From NCBI GenBank assembly GCA_044866355.1, contig JBIOTW010000033.1:13373-77372 (forward strand): a stretch of 64,000 bases of DNA, read 5' to 3'. Origin of the DNA: Candidatus Limnocylindria bacterium. GTDB taxonomy: Bacteria > Chloroflexota > Limnocylindria > QHBO01. The notes beneath the pieces are model-generated. The model had not been told where the DNA came from. It was given only the letters and a program-made list of their open reading frames with translations, and searched no databases. The position numbers were made by a program, and so were the translations under genes. Positions 3,401-17,338 of this stretch are shown in pieces. Position 1 is the first letter of the stretch; each line of letters opens with the position of its first letter.

Positions 3401-4083
3401 TGCTCTCCCTCATCCTCATGCCCACTCTCTTCTGGCTCATCGCCCTGAAGCGGACCACCGGCAACCTCGTCCTCGAGGAATGGGTGATGACACAGGGCGT
3501 GCAGCCTTTGCAGGCCTGGGTGGGCGCGAACCTGCCGTTGGTCGACATCGCGCTGACCGCCGTCAGCGCACTGGGGTCCGGATGGTTCGTGGGGCTTGGC
3601 TTCGCGTTCTGTGGGCTGCTGGCCCTGGCCAAAGGGCGCCGTGACCTCGCGCTTCTGCTGGCCTTCGGGACACTCGCGTTCCCGATGGAATGGGCCCTCA
3701 AGTTCTTCGTGGCCATCACACCCATATCGGTCCCCCAGCTGGTGGCAGCCATGTTCAACGTCAACGAGATCGGGCTGGATGACATCGCCGTCTTTCCCGC
3801 CGGACACGCGTTGCGGGCCACGGTCTTCTATGGCCTGGTCGCCTTCTGCATCGCCCGCCTGTCATCGGACCGGCGGCAGGGCCTGATCGCCTATGCCGTG
3901 GCGCTGGTGCTGATCGTGGCCATCGGTCTGGTCCGGATCTACCTCAACCTCCACTACCCGCTCGACGTGCTGGGTGGCTGGATCGCGGGAGCGGCCCTCC
4001 TGTCGGTGCTGGTGTCCGTCCACATCCTCGGGGTCGATGAGCGCATGAACGCCGCCCTGCGGCAGCGTGTGGCGGCGGCCTAG
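3401..4083 (+). CDS. PAP2 superfamily phosphatase (undecaprenyl-pyrophosphate/phosphatidic acid phosphatase type)
   Basis: C-terminal 227 aa of track ORF 2293-4083: six TM helices and PAP2 motifs KRTTGN, FPAGHALRATVFYG, HYPLDVLGGW. ATG near 3401; the upstream ORF portion is antisense to hutH and discarded. Start coordinate +/-1 nt uncertain. Confidence 0.75.
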
Positions 4084-4092
4084 CCTGCCCGC

Positions 4093-4773
4093 GTGCTGGA
4101 GTTCATCGACCAGACGGTCATCCCCTTCTTCCTGGGGCTGTACGACGCCATCGGCTACCTGGGCGTGGCAGTGGGGGTGGGCCTGGAGACCTTCGTCCCG
4201 ATCCTGCCGTCGGAAGTCATCGTTCCCATGGCGGGCTGGAAGGTTGCGCAGTCTGGAGCCGATCCGGCCATCGTCGAGTGGCTGACCAACGGGCCGTGGA
4301 CCTTCGTCGGCGTCATGGTGGCGGCCACCATCGGAGCAGGCGCCGGATCCCTGGCCGGATATCTGATCGGTGCCTGGGGTGGCCGACCCCTGTTGGACCG
4401 ATACGGCCGATACGTCCACATCTACCCCGACGACCTGGATCGCGCCGATGCCTGGTTCGAGCGCTACGGCGGGTGGGCCGTCTTCCTGGCCCGTTTCGTC
4501 CCGCTCCTGCGAGCGCTGATCAACTACCCCGCCGGAGTGGCCCGGATGCCGATTGGCCGGTTCCTGCTGTTCTCGATCCTGGGCTCGATTCCGTGGAACC
4601 TGGGGCTGGTCGGGGCTGGATGGGTGCTGGGCGAGAACTACGAGGCCCTGTTCGAGGCCACCCGGCCGTTCGAGCTCCTGATCTACGTCATCGTTGTGAT
4701 TGGTGTAGTCGTGATCCTCATCCGCTGGGCCCGCGGCCGAGGCTCGCCCGCGCGGCTTGACGAAGAGCGCTAG
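4093..4773 (+). CDS. DedA/TVP38/SNARE-associated family membrane protein
   Basis: 226 aa, GTG start 9 nt after the PAP2 stop; DedA signature (ETFVPILPSEVIVPMAGW...GYLIG...RFVPLLRALINYPAGVARMP). Confidence 0.8.
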   Translation: MLEFIDQTVIPFFLGLYDAIGYLGVAVGVGLETFVPILPSEVIVPMAGWKVAQSGADPAIVEWLTNGPWTFVGVMVAATIGAGAGSLAGYLIGAWGGRPLLDRYGRYVHIYPDDLDRADAWFERYGGWAVFLARFVPLLRALINYPAGVARMPIGRFLLFSILGSIPWNLGLVGAGWVLGENYEALFEATRPFELLIYVIVVIGVVVILIRWARGRGSPARLDEER

Positions 4774-4805
4774 CGTTCGATTCCGATTCGCTCAGGGATC
4801 GCTCA

Positions 4806-6008
4806 GTGGCCAGGTCCGGGATCTCGGCGCCAGTCCTGTTCCTCTTTCTGGTGGTCGTCGCGGTCGTGGTCGCGGGAATCCTGGGGCGGGCAACAGGTCC
4901 AGCGAGCCCACCCGCATCGACCGCGCCGTCGGCCACAAGCCTCGGCGCTGAACCCTCGCCGGCGATCCCGCCAGCCGCACCAGATCTTTCGTGGCGTTCG
5001 GAACCGTTCCCTGGTGGAGGAGTCACCGCCGCCGCTTTCCACGATGCTGTTTGGGTCACCTTGGGACCCGGTGAGGCCTGGGCCTCGATGAATGGCCAAC
5101 CTTGGCAACCAGGAAGCATCGGCGAGATCGAGCCGCCGGAACAGCACGGAGAAGTCCTCTGGGCCTGGGACATCGCTCGACATGCCGACGCATGGATTGC
5201 GGTCGCGGTCTGGGACGGCCCCGCAGATTCTCAGCGGCCCGTCATCTATCAGTCCACCGACGGTCTGGCCTGGAGTTGGGTCCCGTCGTCGGAATGGTGG
5301 GGATTTGGTTCTTTGGCCATCGCCTCGAACGATTCGCTCCTCGTCGCCACGAATTCGAATTTCGGGATGGGGCAGGGATCCGTTTTCGTCTCCGACGACA
5401 TCGTCGACTGGGATGAGCACGTTGCGCCTGGCGGACCGGCCGCGATGGTCGACGTAACAGCGAGCCCGGAGAGGTTCGTCGCCGTTGGTGGACGACTTGC
5501 TGAGGACGGGGGCCTGTGCCCCGTGGCGTGGCAGTCCGGCGACGGAGTGGAATGGGAAGAGTCGGATCCTATTCCCGCTCCCCCGGGAAGGGGGGCAAAG
5601 GCGATCGGTCGGGCGCGTTCGGGCAGCTACGCCATCGTCGGGACGGAAACGCTTATCCCTGAGGGTTGTTCGTCGAATCCGTGCCTGCTTGAGAGAGTGC
5701 TCGCCTGGAGTTCTGCGGACGGGCAGCAGTGGGAACCTGCTGCTTTTCCGGATACGTCCTTCGGATTCGGCACCTTCTACCGCATGGCAATCGTGCCGGT
5801 TGCTGATGGCCTGGTTGCAGCAACGGTCGGCGGAGAGCACGCGAGTGCGTGGATCACTTCCGACGGCACTGCGTGGGAAGATCTGGGCGTGCCCTTCCCC
5901 GACGGTTCTACGATCGAGGCGATCGCCTCGAGCGGCGACGAGCTCCGCATTTTCCTGGCCTCCGACGTCGGGCGGACCGTCCTGATCGGGACTACGTCTC
6001 CGCCTTGA
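4806..6008 (+). CDS. Secreted/membrane-anchored BNR (Asp-box) repeat beta-propeller protein
   Basis: 400 aa, N-terminal TM/signal, Pro/Ala-rich linker, then at least four S-x-D-G-x-x-W boxes (STDGLAWSW, QSGDGVEWE, SSADGQQWE, TSDGTAWED). The 1181-aa antisense ORF over this region is treated as artefact. Confidence 0.6.
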   Translation: MARSGISAPVLFLFLVVVAVVVAGILGRATGPASPPASTAPSATSLGAEPSPAIPPAAPDLSWRSEPFPGGGVTAAAFHDAVWVTLGPGEAWASMNGQPWQPGSIGEIEPPEQHGEVLWAWDIARHADAWIAVAVWDGPADSQRPVIYQSTDGLAWSWVPSSEWWGFGSLAIASNDSLLVATNSNFGMGQGSVFVSDDIVDWDEHVAPGGPAAMVDVTASPERFVAVGGRLAEDGGLCPVAWQSGDGVEWEESDPIPAPPGRGAKAIGRARSGSYAIVGTETLIPEGCSSNPCLLERVLAWSSADGQQWEPAAFPDTSFGFGTFYRMAIVPVADGLVAATVGGEHASAWITSDGTAWEDLGVPFPDGSTIEAIASSGDELRIFLASDVGRTVLIGTTSPP

Positions 6009-10667: not shown

Positions 10668-11308
10668 GCAGGCATCCGCTGGCGAACGGCGGCCAGCGCG
10701 TCGGCTTCGCGTCTCGCCACGCGGGCTTCGAGCTCGGCCAGGCGCTTCGGGGCGTCAGTGCGGAGGGCGTGCCCTTCGGGCAGCGAGGGGAGGTTGATCG
10801 TGACGTTGAGCGAAGCTCCACGGACGGCGGTCCCGGCCAACAGAGCCGCCACGCCCGCGTCAGTGACGGCGTTGCGATTCCCGATGGGCGCGATGCCCGC
10901 CGCCAGGTCGAGCACCTCCGCTGCGAGCCGGGCGATGCGGAGTGGGACCTCGGTGGCGGCGACCGATGCCTCGCCGATGGCCGCCTTCCGGGTGGCCCGC
11001 TGCTCGTCGTCCTCGCGCGGCATGCGGCGAGCGGCGACCACGGTCAGATAGGCGGTGGCGTCGTCCTCGGCCGCAGTGAGCAGCGACGCGCGCAGCTCGC
11101 CGGCCGCGGTCCCGATCTGGCGGGCGACAGGGTCGACCTCCTCGTATTCGGGCCGTCCAAGGGTCAGCTCACACACCATCTCGACCAGGGCCGCTCCCAA
11201 CGCACCCGAAAGCGCGCTGGCGCTCCCGCCGCCGGGCACCGGGGCCCGCGACGCGAGGCGCGCGGTGAGGTCGCGAACCGTCAGCTCAGCGATGGACGGG
11301 CTGCTCAT
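10664..11308 (-). CDS. Formimino-THF cyclodeaminase / methenyl-THF cyclohydrolase-like protein (FTCD C-domain, FchA family)
   Basis: ~214 aa; N-terminal SIAELTVRDLTARLASRAPVPGGGSASALSGALGAALVEMV matches the cyclodeaminase domain signature; 4-nt overlap with folD start suggests co-transcription. Start placed at internal MSSPS ATG. Confidence 0.6.
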   Translation of the reverse strand: MSSPSIAELTVRDLTARLASRAPVPGGGSASALSGALGAALVEMVCELTLGRPEYEEVDPVARQIGTAAGELRASLLTAAEDDATAYLTVVAARRMPREDDEQRATRKAAIGEASVAATEVPLRIARLAAEVLDLAAGIAPIGNRNAVTDAGVAALLAGTAVRGASLNVTINLPSLPEGHALRTDAPKRLAELEARVARREADALAAVRQRMPA

Positions 11309-11404
11309 GGGCAGCCGATTGTACGGGCGCAAAGGAGAAGCCCGGCGGGCCCGCGGGAGAGGGACGCGGCGCCAGCCGGGCGGCGGGATGGGCTCCGGGA
11401 GCCG

Positions 11405-11689
11405 TCAGGCGGCTGGATCCAGCGCGTCCACGAACCAGCGGCGGCGTCGAGCGTCGAAGACCAGCTCCAACGACTCCCCGGATTCGACCTCCACCACCAG
11501 CATCAGGCGCGGGGAGCTGCCCGCCGGATAGGCGGCCCGTTCGTCGCGCACGGTGGCCAGGCGCAAGATCCGCAGCTCGCGATCGCCGAAGCGGACGCGC
11601 GTCGGCCGGAGCTGCCCCGTATCCCAGGCGACCGACGCCGCAACCGGGGTGATGGAGACGAGAGCCATGAGGTCGACAATACAGAACAT
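11405..11689 (-). CDS. Small hypothetical protein (94 aa) with a LexA box overlapping its start codon
   Basis: ATG at 11687-11689 (reverse) lies inside AGAACATCTGTTCT; no TM segment, no motif I recognise. Alternative start MALVS at 11668. Begins 13 nt downstream of the dinB stop. Confidence 0.4.
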   Translation of the reverse strand: MFCIVDLMALVSITPVAASVAWDTGQLRPTRVRFGDRELRILRLATVRDERAAYPAGSSPRLMLVVEVESGESLELVFDARRRRWFVDALDPAA

Positions 11690-11695
11690 CTGTTC
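11684..11695. promoter_or_regulatory. LexA/SOS box (GAAC-N4-GTTC type), site 1
   Basis: cAGAACatctGTTCTag, palindromic, Gram-positive/actinobacterial LexA operator class; between dinB and the 94-aa ORF. Confidence 0.6.
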
Positions 11696-11701
11696 TAGTT
11701 G

Positions 11702-12883
11702 TCAAGAGTCGGGACGGCGCTTGCTGAACCGCCGTTCTGGCGCCTCGCGGAGCAGACGGGCACGGGTGATGGCCCGGTCGCCGAACTTCTCACGGACCGC
11801 ATCGGTGGCCTCGGCCAGGCGCTGCACGCGCTGGCCGTCGTCGAACAGGGTCAGCTGCTGGGCGTCGACCAGCGAGATGGCGGTGATCCCGATCAGTCGA
11901 ACCGCCCGACCCGGCTCCAGGGTGCGATCGAGGAGCCGATGAACGACCTCGAGCATGACGTGCGCGTCCGTCGTCGGATGCGGGAGCGTCATCTGGCGGC
12001 TCAGCGTCTCGAAGCCCTCGTAGCGGAGCTTGAGCTGGACCCCGCCCGCCGCCACGGAATGGCGCCGCAGGCGGCTCGCCACCGACTCCGCCAGCCATAG
12101 AAGGGTTCCCTCCAGGCCACTCCGCTCGGTGACGTCCACGTTGAAGGTGTGCTCATGACCGATGGACTTGGGGGCGTGGCCCGACACCACCGGGGATCGA
12201 TCGATACCGCGAGCGCGCTGTCCCAATTCCCCACCGTGCCGGCCGAATCGGCGACGCAGGGTCGCCTCCGGGACCGCCGCCAGCTGGCCGATGGTCGTCA
12301 CCCCGTAGTCCGCCAGCGCCTGCCGCACGCGGGGGCCGATGCCCCACAGGCGCGAGACCGGCAACGGGGCCAGGAACGCGGCCTCCTCGCCCGGAGCCAC
12401 CACGACCAGCGCGTCGGGCTTGCGCAGGTCGGAGGCGACCTTGGCCACCAGCTTGTTGGTGGCGACGCCCACGCTGACCACCAGACCGATCTCTTCGCGG
12501 ATGCGTGACTTCAGCGCCCGGCCGATGGTTGGGCCGTCGCCGGCCGGCGCGCCGGTGACGTCGAGAAACGCCTCGTCCATGCTGATCGGCTCCACGAGTG
12601 GCGTGTACGAATCGAAGACCCGCATGACCTGCAGGCTCAGCTCGGCGTATCGCTCTAACCTGCCCGGCAGGAAGACACCTTGTGGGCAGAGGCGGGCGGC
12701 CGTGCGCAGCGGCATGGCCGAGTGGACTCCGAAACGCCGCGCTTCGTAGGACGCAGCGCTCACCACGCCGCGCGCGTCCGGACGCCCGCCCACGATCACC
12801 GGCAGACCGGCCAGCGACGGGTCGTCCAGCACCTCGACCGAGGCGTAGAACGCGTCGAGGTCGGCGTGAAGGATGGTCCGCAT
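11702..12883 (-). CDS. dinB: DNA polymerase IV (Y-family translesion polymerase)
   Basis: 393 aa; MRTILHADLDAFYASVEVLDDP, SMDEAFLDVTG, Y-family palm, thumb and little-finger regions. Confidence 0.9.
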   Translation of the reverse strand: MRTILHADLDAFYASVEVLDDPSLAGLPVIVGGRPDARGVVSAASYEARRFGVHSAMPLRTAARLCPQGVFLPGRLERYAELSLQVMRVFDSYTPLVEPISMDEAFLDVTGAPAGDGPTIGRALKSRIREEIGLVVSVGVATNKLVAKVASDLRKPDALVVVAPGEEAAFLAPLPVSRLWGIGPRVRQALADYGVTTIGQLAAVPEATLRRRFGRHGGELGQRARGIDRSPVVSGHAPKSIGHEHTFNVDVTERSGLEGTLLWLAESVASRLRRHSVAAGGVQLKLRYEGFETLSRQMTLPHPTTDAHVMLEVVHRLLDRTLEPGRAVRLIGITAISLVDAQQLTLFDDGQRVQRLAEATDAVREKFGDRAITRARLLREAPERRFSKRRPDS

Positions 12884-12894
12884 GGATCCCGCGC

Positions 12895-14055
12895 TCAGTC
12901 CGTCCCGGGATACCGGCTGTAGGCGCCAGGGCCGAGGATCGGCAGCAGCCTGTCAGCTTCCGCCTCCAGGGCGTCGCGGTCGGCCGCCTTCAAGCGCCCA
13001 AACGGGCGGAGCTCGATGCGGGCGGCGCCGCCTCGGTCGCGGCGGGGCAGCCACGTCCCGGCCACCATGCCGTCGACCAGGAACGTGGGCAGGACATCCG
13101 CGTTGCGGGTGATGACTGTCGCCTGGTGGGCCGGCGGCAGGACCCGGCTTCGATGGGCCGTGCCGTAGGCCAGCAGCAGGCTGTCCCAGCGGGCGAGGAG
13201 CCGGGGAGGCGCCGGGGTGTCCGCGTCCGGCCGCGGGGCGTCCGGCAGGTCCAGGAGCGTGCGCCCCGCCTCGTCGGTGAAACGGGTCAGGTCCTCGCTC
13301 CCGTCCCCCATTGCCCTGCGCCAGCGCGTCAGCCACTTGCCGCGCCCGACGTACGCAGCCAGGTCCTCGACGCTGGCCGGCCCGAACGCGGCGAGGTATC
13401 GCCGGGCCAGGCGGCTCGTCGCCGCGTCCGGGTCCACCTGCTCAGGATCCGGCTCGCCCAGCCAGTCGCTGGCCGGCGCATATCGCGCCCGACCGTAGGT
13501 CTCCCCGTCGTGCGGCACCTGGATGAGCGGCACGCCTCCGCTGAAGTGGCGCCACAGGCATCGGTAGGGCGGGATCTCCATCCGCCCGACCTTCTCGGCC
13601 AGGATCGACTCGATCTCGTGGATCTGGAGCGGGCGCTCCGTCATGGCCGCCAGCACCGCCGCGTACCCCTTCCGGATTCGGCGGCCGAGGGGAGACGAGA
13701 CCGGATCGCGCTTGTACAGGATCCGCCACTGATTCCAGCGGAACGGCAGAGTCAGGGTGGACATCGCCCAGAAGTCCGTCGCGCTCACGACGTGAACCGT
13801 CAGCCGCATGAGCGAGGCGCGGACCACGGTCCGTCGGGCCCGGGCTCGGGACAGATCGACTGGTGGCACCTTCGTGGCAAGGCGCGTTTGGAGCGCGAGC
13901 GGCGGCCAATCGGGGTGCTGCGCCTGGAGGGAGCCGATCCGTTCGACCAGCCGGGCCACCGGCGCGCGGGGCAGGGAGCGCAGCAGCCCCTGGCGCGCGA
14001 GCGTTGCCCGATTCAGCTGGCGCTGGGTGAGCGTTGGCTGGGCCATGGGTCCCAC
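12895..14055 (-). CDS. Winged-helix DUF1006 protein, YcaQ/AlkZ-family interstrand-crosslink DNA glycosylase candidate
   Basis: 386 aa. N-terminus TLARQGLLRSLPR...RIGSLQAQ resembles the YcaQ/AlkZ N-terminus (E. coli LHLAAQGLL...LLQID) and carries a Q-phi-Q motif (LQAQ). C-terminal VLPTFLVDGMVAGTW resembles YcaQ FVLPLLHRGQLVGRMD. Judged from memory of family sequences, not a search. Confidence 0.5.
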   Translation of the reverse strand: MGPMAQPTLTQRQLNRATLARQGLLRSLPRAPVARLVERIGSLQAQHPDWPPLALQTRLATKVPPVDLSRARARRTVVRASLMRLTVHVVSATDFWAMSTLTLPFRWNQWRILYKRDPVSSPLGRRIRKGYAAVLAAMTERPLQIHEIESILAEKVGRMEIPPYRCLWRHFSGGVPLIQVPHDGETYGRARYAPASDWLGEPDPEQVDPDAATSRLARRYLAAFGPASVEDLAAYVGRGKWLTRWRRAMGDGSEDLTRFTDEAGRTLLDLPDAPRPDADTPAPPRLLARWDSLLLAYGTAHRSRVLPPAHQATVITRNADVLPTFLVDGMVAGTWLPRRDRGGAARIELRPFGRLKAADRDALEAEADRLLPILGPGAYSRYPGTD

Positions 14056-14095
14056 CAGCCTAGCGGCGGCCGCGCCGCCGCCATCGGTCAGTTGG

Positions 14096-14758
14096 TCAGA
14101 GCTTGCGGATGACGCCGACCACCTTGCCCTGGATCTGGAGCTCGGTGGCGTAGATGGGCTCCATTTCGGAGTTGGCCGGCTGGAGGCGGATCCGCCCGTC
14201 CTCGCGGTAGAACCGCTTCAGGGTGACCCCGTTGTCCTCCAGCAGGGCGACCACGATGTCGCCGTCCCGGGCGGTGGCCTGGGGCTGGACGATCACGAAG
14301 TCGCCGTCGTCGATCAGCGCGTCGACCATGCTCTTGCCCCGCACCCGAAGAACGTAGGAGTCCTCGCGGGCCTGGATCGAGCGCGGGACGTCGATGGGCT
14401 CGGGGTCCTGGTAGGCCTCGATGGGCTGGCCGGCCGCGATCTCACCGACCAGTGGCAGCTGCACGGGGTCGCGCTCGACCGGCATTCGGAAGGGCGTCAC
14501 TGCCCCACGGGCTGGCCGTGCGGGCGGTGCGGCGCCGGTGGCCTTGGCGGTCAGGCGCAGGGCGCGGGACGAGCGGCTGCCGCGTTCCAGCTGTCCCGAG
14601 CGTTCGAGCGCAACCAGGTGGTGATGGACCGCGGACGTCGAGGCGAGGCCGACCGCGTCCGCGATCTCGCGGACCGAGGGCGGGTATCCGCGCTCGGCCA
14701 CGGTTCGGGCGATGTAGTCCACGATGCGCTGTCGGCGCTCGGCGTCGTGCCGCGTCAC
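14096..14758 (-). CDS. lexA: LexA repressor
   Basis: 220 aa; N-terminal winged HTH (GYPPSVREIADAVGLASTSAVHHHLVALE), Ala-Gly cleavage site (IAAGQPIEA), S24 peptidase Ser-Lys dyad (RVRGKSM ... TLKRF). Confidence 0.95.
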   Translation of the reverse strand: MTRHDAERRQRIVDYIARTVAERGYPPSVREIADAVGLASTSAVHHHLVALERSGQLERGSRSSRALRLTAKATGAAPPARPARGAVTPFRMPVERDPVQLPLVGEIAAGQPIEAYQDPEPIDVPRSIQAREDSYVLRVRGKSMVDALIDDGDFVIVQPQATARDGDIVVALLEDNGVTLKRFYREDGRIRLQPANSEMEPIYATELQIQGKVVGVIRKL

Positions 14759-14773
14759 GTCGCCAGAGTATCA

Positions 14774-14785
14774 GAACGCCTGTTC
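14774..14785. promoter_or_regulatory. LexA/SOS box, site 2 (lexA autoregulatory operator; shared with divergent DUF1232 gene)
   Basis: cAGAACgcctGTTCTaa located 16 nt upstream of the lexA ATG (14756-14758). Confidence 0.65.
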
Positions 14786-14849
14786 TAATGTCAACGTCTT
14801 GGTATCATCCCGGCCCACCTCGTCCCGTCTGACCGGAGATCGCAGCGAA

Positions 14850-15350
14850 GTGTTCCGTCCCGGCCGGTGGCGTTATCTGCGCGCCGCCAAAGTTCTGCTC
14901 CAGCTCCCCTCCTACGCCCGCCTGGTTTGGGGGCTGGCCCGCGACGCGCGCACCCCCGTCGCCCTCAAGGCCGTGCTCTTCGCAGCCCTGGTCTACGTCA
15001 TCGCTCCCATCGACCTGATTCCGGACGTCATTCCCATCCTCGGTGCGGCCGATGACCTGACCGTCCTGCTCCTTGTCCTGGACCTGTTCATCAGCAATGC
15101 GCCCGCGGCGGTCCGCGAGGAGCACCTGGCTCGGGCCAAGGCCGGGCAGGCAGTGCTCGACGAGGACCTGGCACGCCTCCGCACGCTGCTTGGCGCTCGG
15201 TACGACCGCATCCGGGACACCTTGCCTGAGCTCCTGGATCGATTCGGCGGCCTGCGGGATGCGGATGAGGTCAAGAAGCAGATCGCCGGGTGGCGTGCCG
15301 CACGAGGCAAGACTGACGCGCGCCCCGAGACGCCCGTGGAGGCGAAATGA
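14850..15350 (+). CDS. DUF1232 (YkvA-like) small membrane protein
   Basis: Track ORF 14724-15350; I place the start at GTG ~14850 (MFRPGRWRYL). Conserved KALLYFISPIDLIPDxIPxLGxxDD-type segment (LVYVIAPIDLIPDVIPILGAADDL). Divergent from lexA. Confidence 0.5.
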   Translation: MFRPGRWRYLRAAKVLLQLPSYARLVWGLARDARTPVALKAVLFAALVYVIAPIDLIPDVIPILGAADDLTVLLLVLDLFISNAPAAVREEHLARAKAGQAVLDEDLARLRTLLGARYDRIRDTLPELLDRFGGLRDADEVKKQIAGWRAARGKTDARPETPVEAK

Positions 15351-15793
15351 AGGTCATCCTCAAGCGCGACGTGAAGGGCCTGGGCCGCGAAGGCGATTTG
15401 AAGGACGTCAAGGACGGCTTCGCCCGCAACCACCTCATTCCCACCGGGGCGGCCGTCCTGGCCGACCTGGGAGCCGTTCGCAACTGGGAGCGTCACCGCG
15501 AGCAGCGCGACGAGCGCGACAGGTCCCTGCGCGCCGATGCCGAGGCCATCGCCGCCCGGCTGGGGGAGCTCACGATCCAGATCGGGGTCAAGGCCGGCGA
15601 GCGGGATCGCCTGTTCGGGTCGGTGACCACCCGGGACGTGGCGGATCGGCTCCGCCAGGAGGGGATCGACATCGATCGGCACGACGTCCACCTGCGGGAG
15701 CCGATCAAGACGGTGGGCGAGCACCTGGTCAGCGTCCACCTCATGCCCGGCCTCGAGGCCCAGCTTCGCGTCGAGGTCGTCGCCGAGCACTGA
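15347..15793 (+). CDS. rplI: 50S ribosomal protein L9
   Basis: 148 aa; MKVILKRDVKGLGREGDLKDVKDGFARNHLIP is canonical L9. Confidence 0.9.
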   Translation: MKVILKRDVKGLGREGDLKDVKDGFARNHLIPTGAAVLADLGAVRNWERHREQRDERDRSLRADAEAIAARLGELTIQIGVKAGERDRLFGSVTTRDVADRLRQEGIDIDRHDVHLREPIKTVGEHLVSVHLMPGLEAQLRVEVVAEH

Positions 15794-15823
15794 ATCGCGC
15801 CGCGCGACGGTCTAGCTGTCGCA

Positions 15824-15835
15824 GAACGGGTGTTC
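15824..15835. promoter_or_regulatory. LexA-like box, site 3, in the rplI-dnaB intergenic region
   Basis: cAGAACgggtGTTCGat, about 145 nt upstream of the dnaB GTG; same extended AGAAC-N4-GTTC core as sites 1 and 2. Confidence 0.4.
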
Positions 15836-15979
15836 GATTGGGGACATGTTCTCCACACCGCGCCGACAGCTTCGGGCGGCTTATCCGCAACGGGGTTTGG
15901 GGTTCGTTCATAAGCCGGCGGTAATCGTTGGCAAATCCATTTCCGTCGCGGGCGATGCCCCGTACGGTCGCCCACACCC

Positions 15980-17338
15980 GTGAGCATCGATCGCGTCGCC
16001 CCCCAGTCGGTCGAGGCCGAGCAGAGCGTCCTCGGCTCGATCCTCATCGACCCCGAGGCCATCCTCAAAGTCGCCGACTTCCTGCACTCAACCGATTTCT
16101 ATCGCCCCCAGCACGCGGACATCTACGAGGCGATGCTGGCGCTCCACAACCAGAGAGAGCCCATCGACCTGGTCACCCTGGGCGACGAGCTGACGCGTCG
16201 CGACCGCCTGGATGGGGTGGGTGGGCCGGCATACCTGGCGACCCTGATGAACGCGGTCCCCACCGCGGTCCACGTGGAGCACTACGGGAGGATCGTCGAG
16301 CAGAAGGCCGTCCTCCGGAACCTGATCGCGGCCGCGGGGCGCATCGCGGCGGTGGGCTACGAGGAGGCCAACGACACGGCGGCCGCCATCGACCGGGCCG
16401 AGGGCATCCTGTTCGAGATCAGCCAGCGCCGCACGGTTGCCGGCTTCGAGACGCTGGCGACCCTGCTCGGGCAGGCCTATGACCGGCTCGAGTACCTCCA
16501 CGAGCACCGCGGCCAGATCCTCGGCATTCCCACCGGGCTGGCCGGGCTCGACACGCTGCTCGGCGGATTCCAGCCCTCGGACCTCGTCATCCTCGCGGCG
16601 CGGCCCAGCGTCGGAAAGACCAGCCTGGCCCTCAACGTGGCGCTGCACGCCGCGATCCACGAGCAGAAACGGGTGGCCATCTTCTCCCTGGAGATGAGCC
16701 GCGAGCAGCTCGCCCTGCGGCTGCTGTCGTCCGAAACGGGGATCAACCCGCGGCCCCTGCAGACCGGATTCATGGAGGAGACCGACTGGTCGAAGATCGC
16801 GCGGGTCATGAACGACATGGCCAGCGCCCAGATGTGGATCGACGACTCGCCCACTCTGTCGGTCCTCGAGCTGCGGACCAAGGCTCGCCGGCTTGAGGTC
16901 GAGCAGCGTGGACTGGACCTGATCATCGTCGACTACCTCCAGCTCATGGAGGCGTCCACCTCCACTCGCGAGCCGAACCGCGTCCAGGAAGTCAGCGAGA
17001 TCAGCCGCGGGCTGAAGAACCTGGCTCGCGAGCTCAAGGTCCCGGTCCTGGCGTTGTCCCAGCTGTCGCGCAACGTCGAGCAACGAGGCGGGATGGGCGA
17101 GCCGCGCCTGTCGGACCTCCGCGAGTCCGGATCGCTCGAGCAGGATGCCGACGTCGTCATCTTCCTGTACCGCGCCGAACAGGAGACCATCGCCGAGGCG
17201 GACCTCGAGCTGGTGAAGGCCAAGGTCGCCAAGCACCGCAACGGACCGATCGGCGAAGTCCCGCTCCAGTTCCGACGGACGCAGACCCGCTTCTATTCGG
17301 TCAGCGCTCGGGAGGACGTGGAGGTCGCGACCTACTAG
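15980..17338 (+). CDS. dnaB: Replicative DNA helicase DnaB
   Basis: 452 aa, GTG start; N-terminal VEAEQSVLGSILIDPEAI, Walker A ARPSVGKTSLALN, no intein. Confidence 0.95.
   Translation: MSIDRVAPQSVEAEQSVLGSILIDPEAILKVADFLHSTDFYRPQHADIYEAMLALHNQREPIDLVTLGDELTRRDRLDGVGGPAYLATLMNAVPTAVHVEHYGRIVEQKAVLRNLIAAAGRIAAVGYEEANDTAAAIDRAEGILFEISQRRTVAGFETLATLLGQAYDRLEYLHEHRGQILGIPTGLAGLDTLLGGFQPSDLVILAARPSVGKTSLALNVALHAAIHEQKRVAIFSLEMSREQLALRLLSSETGINPRPLQTGFMEETDWSKIARVMNDMASAQMWIDDSPTLSVLELRTKARRLEVEQRGLDLIIVDYLQLMEASTSTREPNRVQEVSEISRGLKNLARELKVPVLALSQLSRNVEQRGGMGEPRLSDLRESGSLEQDADVVIFLYRAEQETIAEADLELVKAKVAKHRNGPIGEVPLQFRRTQTRFYSVSAREDVEVATY

Follow-up and report, generated by a model that had tools for sequence, protein, structure and literature searches.

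In this study, we analysed 64,000 nucleotides (nt) of contig JBIOTW010000033.1 from Candidatus Limnocylindria bacterium (the window, whose positions serve as coordinates throughout). According to the open reading frame (ORF) listing, lexA, a gene for an AlkZ-like DNA glycosylase (hereafter alkZ), dinB and a small ORF follow one another there on the minus strand (Table 1), and the locus is a real, conserved SOS gene cluster of Limnocylindria. A sequence-only reading of this DNA had named lexA, an AlkZ/YcaQ-family glycosylase and dinB, and all three identities were borne out, the curated models scoring above their cut-offs in every case. It had also described four same-strand genes with gaps of 40, 11 and 13 nt. 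The common strand is correct; the gaps between its ORF calls are 40, 11 and 12 nt, and they become 49, 11 and 33 nt with corrected starts. The AlkZ-like protein most likely starts at ATG 14046, because its orthologues start there and most database relatives are 380–385 amino acids (aa) long, 383 aa being the commonest length. The small gene, first called as a 94-aa ORF from ATG 11689, encodes 87 aa from ATG 11668, since the N-terminus MALVSI is conserved in its homologues and ATG 11689 lies inside a LexA box, upstream of the −10 hexamer.

Table 1. Genes and sequence features of the SOS cluster and its flanks, given as positions in the window.
Feature	Position	Strand	Description
lexA	14758..14096	-	220 aa, GTG start; TIGR00498, PF01726, PF00717
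AlkZ-like (HTH_42/PF06224) DNA glycosylase gene	12895..14046	-	383 aa; QAQ at residues 41-43
dinB (DNA polymerase IV)	11702..12883	-	393 aa; NF002677; IMS, IMS_HHH, IMS_C
Small SOS gene	11405..11668	-	87 aa, all-beta; probably divergent standalone ImuB-C/DUF6504-like; C-terminal Ala-Ala
DUF1232 membrane-protein gene	14850..15350	+	divergent from lexA; PF06803, 45 bits
LexA operator 1 (AGAACGCCTGTTCT)	14773..14786		between -35 and -10 of the lexA promoter
LexA operator 2 (AGAACATCTGTTCT)	11683..11696		between -35 and -10 of the small-gene promoter
lexA promoter	14767..14794	-	-35 TTGACA 14794-14789, 16-nt spacer, -10 GATACT 14772-14767
Small-gene promoter	11676..11705	-	-35 TTGACA 11705-11700, 18-nt spacer, -10 TATTGT 11681-11676
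Degenerate second box (TGAACCGCCGTTCT)	11725..11738		within the dinB 3' end, 42 bp from the main operator 2
GC-rich 10-bp hairpin in the lexA-alkZ spacer	14061..14083	-	no U tract
Terminator-like element 3' of the small gene	11330..11381	-	GC-rich hairpin 11381-11340, then UUCUCCUUUG

LexA matched TIGR00498 with 196.2 bits against a cut-off of 110.95 and contained both LexA_DNA_bind (PF01726, E = 6.4e-20) and Peptidase_S24 (PF00717, E = 5.6e-31). Read directly, its translation holds an Ala-Gly cleavage site (VGEIAAGQP), a catalytic Ser (RGKSMVDA) and a catalytic Lys (VTLKRFY), which we take, by likeness, to be the counterparts of A84-G85, S119 and K156 of Escherichia coli LexA. DinB (DNA polymerase IV, Pol IV) matched NF002677 with 354.1 bits (cut-off 256) and carries the IMS, IMS_HHH and IMS_C domains, corresponding to palm, thumb and little finger. 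In its translation, DLDAFYASVE and SMDEAF are the catalytic motifs, and QLTLF is a motif of the beta-clamp-binding kind. The DinB tail AVREKFGDRAITRARLL resembles QIEKQFGKGSIMRLG of RecA by eye, and Pfam DUF4113 gave no match even at E ≤ 10. The AlkZ-like protein scored 212.6 bits with PF06224 (gathering threshold 25.9), residues 37–371 of the 386-aa ORF first called covering positions 1–327 of the 329 in the profile. A profile search of the middle gene against PF06224/DUF1006 was the check that the sequence-only reading had proposed for its assignment, and the score is far above the cut-off.

The palindrome AGAACNNNNGTTCT is present exactly twice in the window, at 11683–11696 and 14773–14786, and was absent from all of 100 dinucleotide-preserving shuffles of the window; for the looser core GAAC-N4-GTTC, four sites were counted where chance would give 0.5. 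The presence of two exact boxes where none is expected indicates that the earlier observation of such boxes, including a second one between dinB and the small ORF, is real. GAAC-N4-GTTC is the LexA motif of Firmicutes and Actinobacteria, and variants of it occur in Chloroflexi (PMC4951493). The boxes of the window appear to fit this operator type, being palindromes that overlap predicted promoters and are conserved in orthologous promoters. A consensus scan of positions 11000–15400 found exactly two sigma-70-like promoters, against 0.2 expected, each with a LexA box in its spacer, and the small-gene promoter agreed with the consensus at 10 of 12 positions. The lexA GTG lies 8 nt after the −10 hexamer, and the box ends 14 nt upstream of this codon; the operator had thus been recognized correctly from the sequence, and only the distance of 16 nt and the ATG assigned to lexA have to be revised. 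The ATG of the small gene lies 7 nt after its −10 hexamer, and the stop codon TGA of dinB is inside its −35 hexamer. With start codons 8 and 7 nt from the −10 hexamers, the mRNAs of lexA and of the small gene are both probably leaderless in this lineage.

Because each box is situated in the spacer of a separate promoter, the promoter/operator anatomy predicts two tandem LexA-repressed units, lexA-alkZ-dinB transcribed from P(lexA) and the small gene transcribed from a promoter of its own. Autoregulation of lexA is likewise predicted, since an operator lies in its own promoter. We consider it likely that the locus is a core SOS cassette for lesion processing and translesion synthesis, made up of a LexA-autoregulated lexA-alkZ-dinB unit and a separately LexA-gated gene whose product resembles ImuB's C-terminal domain (ImuB-C).

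The anatomy of the cluster is conserved in related loci, of which 55, nearly all from metagenome-assembled genomes (MAGs) of Limnocylindria/Chloroflexota, were retrieved from species-representative genomes with a profile of the small protein. With the window included in the counts, 52 arrangements could be scored and four were cut by contig ends. The order lexA-alkZ-dinB-small gene was found in 23 loci, lexA-dinB-small gene in 20, and dinB-small gene without an adjacent lexA in nine, so that lexA is upstream in 43 of the 52, and 23 of these 43 have alkZ between it and dinB. On every contig that holds both, dinB is the direct neighbour of the small gene, with the single exception of a locus (L038) that has a 2.3-kb insert (3670–6000) between them. 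All 40 lexA upstream regions that were aligned have the form TTGACA(A/T)TA-GAACN4GTTC-TGCTAsssT, and no related locus with lexA lacks a GAAC-N4-GTTC box at this position. The small-gene promoter of the near clade reads TTGACAAnTA-box-GTATTsT-N7-8-ATG and has one box, while that of the far clade has the same design with two boxes 32–35 bp apart and a Shine-Dalgarno leader; one or two boxes precede the small gene in every locus covering that region. Where lexA is not adjacent (nine loci), no box lies within 300 bp of dinB and the small gene keeps two. As its boxes are kept even there, the small gene appears to be the cluster member with the most consistent LexA control.

The two clades also differ in their leaders. 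Both lexA and the small gene are leaderless by position in the window's clade (7–8 nt from the −10) and have leaders of 30–60 nt with GGAG(G) in the distant clade, which, judged from these sequences, is a coordinated switch of translation initiation within one bacterial class. The far-clade loci L021–L058 have a conserved element, GAGTGCCCGAGCAGG, directly after the second LexA box and about 40–70 nt upstream of the small gene. Base pairing between this element and the box half-site (CCUGUUCG/CGAGCAGG) can give an 8-bp leader hairpin (z −0.5); the window's clade lacks the element.

A profile of 15 orthologues of the glycosylase had a single match in the PDB, AlkZ (5UUJ), over the full length (E = 1.6e-14). 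The segment SLQAQHP is invariant in the 15 orthologues and aligns on GVQAQV of this enzyme. The motif (Q/H)-Phi-Q defines the AZL enzymes and Q-Phi-D the YcaQ-like (YQL) enzymes (PMC9040887), and the third position was Gln, never Asp, in all 15 orthologues. The N-terminus had earlier been likened to YcaQ/AlkZ enzymes; this was right as to the family and wrong as to a YcaQ type, QAQ being the AZL motif and not the Q-x-D of YcaQ. An AlphaFold2 (AF2) model built on an alignment of database homologues (predicted local distance difference test [pLDDT] 86.3, predicted template modelling score [pTM] 0.86) had 5UUJ as its top Foldseek match (E = 7.7e-16, template modelling score [TM] 0.73/0.75), followed by DNA-bound AlkX/YcaQ (9ZD6, TM 0.65) and the Lhr C-terminal domain. 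The AlkZ fold, with tandem winged helices and a C-terminal beta domain, was thereby confirmed in the predicted model. Motif and modelled fold mark the glycosylase as AlkZ-type, and an activity on alkylpurines or crosslinks is predicted for it.

Comparison with near-clade orthologues gave a ratio of nonsynonymous to synonymous substitution rates (dN/dS) of 0.17–0.24 for alkZ, indicating purifying selection. The gene occurs in both deep clades at 50–80% identity, in step with the divergence of dinB and lexA. Two loci hold remnants of it in which about the first 11 and the last 7 codons are joined in frame (MVQPMLTLRQLDRGYPGTD, followed by a stop; L005, about 4675–4787, and L007, about 595–723), and the start region of alkZ is retained after deletion in L008 (about 4727–4787), L015 and L016. 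These deletion scars show that the operon of, at least, the window's clade originally included alkZ, which has been lost repeatedly.

It is possible, although we regard it as doubtful, that alkZ is a dispensable passenger, present by accident or for convenient induction and mechanistically unconnected with Pol IV and the small protein. Its absence from 20 of the 43 lexA-bearing loci and the clean deletions in close relatives agree with this possibility, as does the linkage between dinB and the small gene, which is the same with or without alkZ. However, the gene has been kept in both deep clades while diverging in parallel with dinB and lexA, its catalytic motif is invariant, it is under purifying selection, and its position is always the same, only 11 nt from dinB in the window. 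Moreover, by base-excision logic (PMC9040887), unhooking by a glycosylase makes abasic sites, which then have to be bypassed or their gaps filled.

The small protein of the window had no match in Pfam or NCBIfam, DUF6504 included. Its family, sampled by a HMMER profile search of 1.84 billion representative proteins, is narrow, with 96 relatives among these representatives, none of ImuB length, and about 690 clusters at 90% identity. R41, P53 and W78 are invariant in the family, and a dN/dS of 0.09–0.32 indicates purifying selection on the gene. The AF2 model (pLDDT 87) is all-beta with six strands and has no fold relative in the PDB. DUF6504 (PF20114) was the top weak Pfam match in six of 41 members, with a best E of 1.7e-4; the best member reached at most 17 bits, below the gathering score of 24.2 bits. 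Because this curated threshold is not reached, we do not assign the small protein to DUF6504. DUF6504 is ImuB's C-terminal domain: residues 430–500 of Sinorhizobium meliloti ImuB match it, themselves at a sub-threshold 17.2 bits, and the NCBI annotation pipeline gives proteins with ImuB-C the name 'DUF6504 family protein'.

The family profile was aligned by hhalign with a profile of 11 ImuB C-termini from plasmid records, giving P = 8.6e-5 and a probability of 60% over 79 columns end to end, with Trp on Trp. The score of 30.2 compares with 10.4 ± 2.2 (maximum 23.4) in 200 column shuffles and with 9.6 for the reversed alignment. Alignment of the family profile with a single ImuB C-terminus was not significant (P = 0.058), a tblastn search of plasmids with a family member returned noise only, and no standalone ImuB-C was found in the stretches examined beside Collinsella dinB or on Deinococcus deserti plasmid 1. 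ImuB-C has been described as a small, all-beta protein in which a C-terminal Trp and basic residues are conserved and whose standalone copies mostly adjoin dinB, often together with lexA (PMC3765255), and as a beta-barrel without a close PDB relative (PMC12926913). The family studied here fits this description in being all-beta, in having an invariant C-terminal Trp after basic residues and in lacking a PDB relative, and in the 55-locus comparison its gene lies beside a Y-family polymerase gene, often with lexA. Given the weak DUF6504 matches and the hhalign result, the small gene, an anonymous ORF in the sequence-only reading, probably encodes a divergent standalone ImuB-C-like accessory factor.

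ssrA-like C-terminal signals mark proteins for proteolysis. The small protein ends in Ala-Ala in 182 of 204 family members, against 1.6% expected, on a tail that varies in length from 0 to about 20 residues (11405–11410 in the window). As Ala-Ala is kept despite the varying tail length, we infer a proteolytic degron that probably targets the small protein for rapid proteolysis. In three database entries (P0101, P0113 and P0120), the small protein is fused to the product of the downstream FTCD_C cyclodeaminase-like gene. These fusions are probably frameshift or gene-calling artefacts, and they indicate that the synteny with the FTCD_C neighbour reaches distant relatives.

We also considered the possibility that the small protein is an SOS effector of another kind, such as a cell-division inhibitor, a toxin or a modulator of LexA or RecA, and ranked it low, the cell-division inhibitor included; in our judgement it is unlikely. 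Small clade-specific checkpoint proteins are common in SOS regulons, the C-terminal Ala-Ala would suit a short-lived regulator, the gene is the most consistently LexA-boxed of the cluster, and the link to ImuB-C is sub-threshold. On the other hand, the protein is soluble, folds as six beta-strands in the model and has no hydrophobic segment, and the end-to-end alignment with the ImuB-C profile is far above the shuffled and reversed controls. The gene also adjoins dinB on every contig that includes the two, whereas some loci have no adjacent lexA, and the divergently transcribed DUF1232 membrane-protein gene is by position the better candidate for a division inhibitor.

In the cassette that we favour, LexA would bind both operators, and RecA-stimulated self-cleavage of LexA after DNA damage would open both promoters. 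The AlkZ-type glycosylase would then excise bulky or crosslinked N7-alkylpurines to leave abasic sites, and Pol IV, tethered to the clamp through QLTLF and helped by the small protein and possibly by RecA, would fill or bypass the abasic or unhooked intermediates. Newly made LexA, encoded by the first gene of the first unit, would shut the system again, and turnover of the small protein through its C-terminal Ala-Ala may help to reset it. Several points weigh against this proposal. The predicted LexA control is known from MAG sequences of uncultured organisms. As noted, alkZ is lacking in 20 of the 43 lexA-bearing loci, and its repeated loss means that the link between alkZ and dinB is facultative and could be mere co-expression. 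The window's small protein itself has no DUF6504 match, its best family member attains at most 17 of the 24.2 bits, and the hhalign probability is 60%. The stretch of the DinB tail likened to the RecA N-terminus was recognized by eye and has no DUF4113 match. Finally, a consensus scan found no terminator between dinB and the small gene, so that read-through from P(lexA) into the small gene is possible.

This last point, together with the common strand and short gaps of the four genes, would agree with a single operon lexA-alkZ-dinB-small ORF, as the sequence-only reading had supposed when it took the boxes to bracket one transcription unit; the downstream box would then be a roadblock or a second operator of the same transcript. 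We consider such an operon improbable. A full −35/−10 promoter with 10 of 12 consensus positions has the second box in its spacer. This promoter is conserved in all relatives, and loci with no adjacent lexA and no box at dinB still have it, with two boxes. In addition, the ATG from which the small ORF had been read (11689) is inside the box, and the homologues begin with MALVSI, that is, at 11668. The second box is therefore better described as the operator of a separate small-gene promoter conserved in related loci.

That the AlkZ-like enzyme is a self-resistance glycosylase directed against a genotoxin of the organism's own, as many Streptomyces AZL proteins are, was considered as well and ranked lowest: the AZL-type Q-Phi-Q motif and the enrichment of AZL proteins in biosynthetic clusters (PMC9040887) speak for it, but throughout a whole class alkZ is part of the lexA operon, and the genes within about 8 kb (dnaB, rplI, FTCD_C, folD, TauE and an ABC transporter) are housekeeping genes with no biosynthetic gene among them, which departs from the typical AZL setting and argues against such a role, so that we hold it to be very improbable.

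The favoured two-unit cassette is flanked and punctuated by further elements. In 39 of 40 related loci, the DUF1232 gene is transcribed divergently from lexA, and the spacer of 58–152 bp between them (14759–14849 in the window) holds a LexA box. By this association, the gene is a possible further member of the SOS regulon. The SOS cell-division inhibitor genes yneA, chiZ and sosA of Gram-positive bacteria occupy the equivalent position. At the position of the degenerate box within the dinB 3' end (11725–11738), a box core is shared by L005, L007 and L008; this site may serve as an auxiliary operator, or it may be left over from the arrangement with two boxes in the distant clade. The hairpin in the lexA-alkZ spacer, whose 10-bp stem is perfect, is not exceptional in comparison with shuffles (z −0.84), and its sequence is kept even in loci from which alkZ has been deleted; it possibly affects RNA stability, attenuation or the ratio of lexA to downstream expression. 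The terminator-like element downstream of the small gene has too long a loop for the strict consensus scan, which missed it, and a search of positions 11000–16000 against Rfam revealed no RNA family. A LexA-box-like site with one mismatch (AGAACGGGTGTTCG) occurs between rplI and dnaB at 15823–15836, some 144 bp upstream of dnaB. As it has no surrounding promoter consensus and does not recur in related loci, we rejected it as a dnaB operator, and it is probably a chance or lineage-specific site.

Two features of the sampled genomes should be mentioned. Two MAGs contributed two cluster-bearing contigs each (L013 with L014, and L020 with L042), which may be strain mixtures or paralogous copies. 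Contigs labelled as Pleomorphomonadaceae, Vicinamibacterales, Steroidobacteraceae and Binatia are up to 91% identical to the window in spite of these non-Chloroflexota labels and are probably mis-binned.

Cassettes of this general type are known. In Geobacter sulfurreducens, lexA-imuB-C-polY is co-transcribed and damage-induced (PMC6511836), and neighbourhoods of DinB, standalone ImuB-C and LexA have been described (PMC3765255). The Limnocylindria cluster resembles these in being, by prediction, a LexA-autoregulated cassette and in encoding a small protein with a C-terminal Trp and basic residues. It differs from that of Geobacter in its order, lexA-(alkZ)-dinB-small gene, with an AlkZ-family glycosylase between lexA and dinB, in the predicted LexA-controlled promoter of the small gene, and in a small protein that falls below the DUF6504 threshold and ends in Ala-Ala. 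The SOS-controlled Deinococcus cassette lexA-imuY-imuB-C-dnaE2 (PMC8072749) likewise has lexA first, then a Y-family gene and, downstream of it, a standalone ImuB-C (about 80 aa). The polymerase homologue there, which acts together with DnaE2, is predicted to be inactive, whereas the DinB described here keeps the catalytic residues, and the Limnocylindria cluster has a glycosylase and no dnaE2.

The glycosylase shares PF06224, the fold (TM 0.73–0.75) and QAQ at the aligned position with AlkZ of Streptomyces sahachiroi (5UUJ; AZL, PMC9040887), although the two are only 19% identical and the Limnocylindria gene is in a lexA operon, not in a biosynthetic cluster. It belongs to the same superfamily as E. 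coli YcaQ and Acinetobacter baumannii AlkX (YQL; PMC7367128, PMC11228520, 9ZD6) and has a similar fold (TM 0.65), but these have Q-Phi-D in place of Q-A-Q. E. coli ycaQ is part of a constitutive cell-wall/competence operon, and A. baumannii alkX, which mechlorethamine induces, is described as monocistronic in a paper that makes no mention of LexA (PMC11228520). The arrangement in the window had been thought undescribed. For lexA with a translesion polymerase and ImuB-C this does not hold (PMC6511836, PMC8072749, PMC3765255); for a glycosylase in a lexA operon it appears to, as no link between the AlkZ/YcaQ family and LexA or SOS was found in the literature searched (DUF1006 with LexA, and papers on the family). 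The cassette type is thus known, and what is new is the AlkZ-type glycosylase embedded in it and the separately gated, highly divergent ImuB-C-like gene.

In the vertebrate route of NEIL3 plus translesion synthesis, the glycosylase unhooks a crosslink and a translesion polymerase bypasses the abasic site. The Limnocylindria cluster shares this logic with unrelated proteins, the coupling being seen here only as predicted co-transcription. We tentatively propose that tolerance of crosslinks and bulky adducts is wired into the SOS operon as a counterpart of the NEIL3 route, in which an independently LexA-gated, possibly degron-tagged ImuB-C-like subunit would be short-lived and would license Pol IV to bypass the abasic or unhooked intermediates; at present, this extension of the favoured cassette is a possibility that we put forward with some reserve.

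In the literature found, AlkZ/YcaQ enzymes are cast as antibiotic self-resistance proteins, as constitutive housekeeping enzymes or as enzymes induced by an undefined route. The cluster described here is the first genomic indication that we have found of an AlkZ/YcaQ-family crosslink glycosylase as a core SOS gene, predicted to be co-transcribed with LexA and Pol IV, and it suggests which polymerase may handle the abasic sites that such glycosylases make, an open question in the AlkZ literature (PMC9040887). It also adds a divergent branch, by prediction separately LexA-gated, to the poorly understood ImuB-C proteins, and the conserved Ala-Ala makes the idea of a short-lived subunit that licenses a polymerase testable. 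For the Limnocylindria, an abundant and uncultured class of soil and freshwater Chloroflexota, our analysis provides a well-resolved set of predicted SOS operators and promoters.

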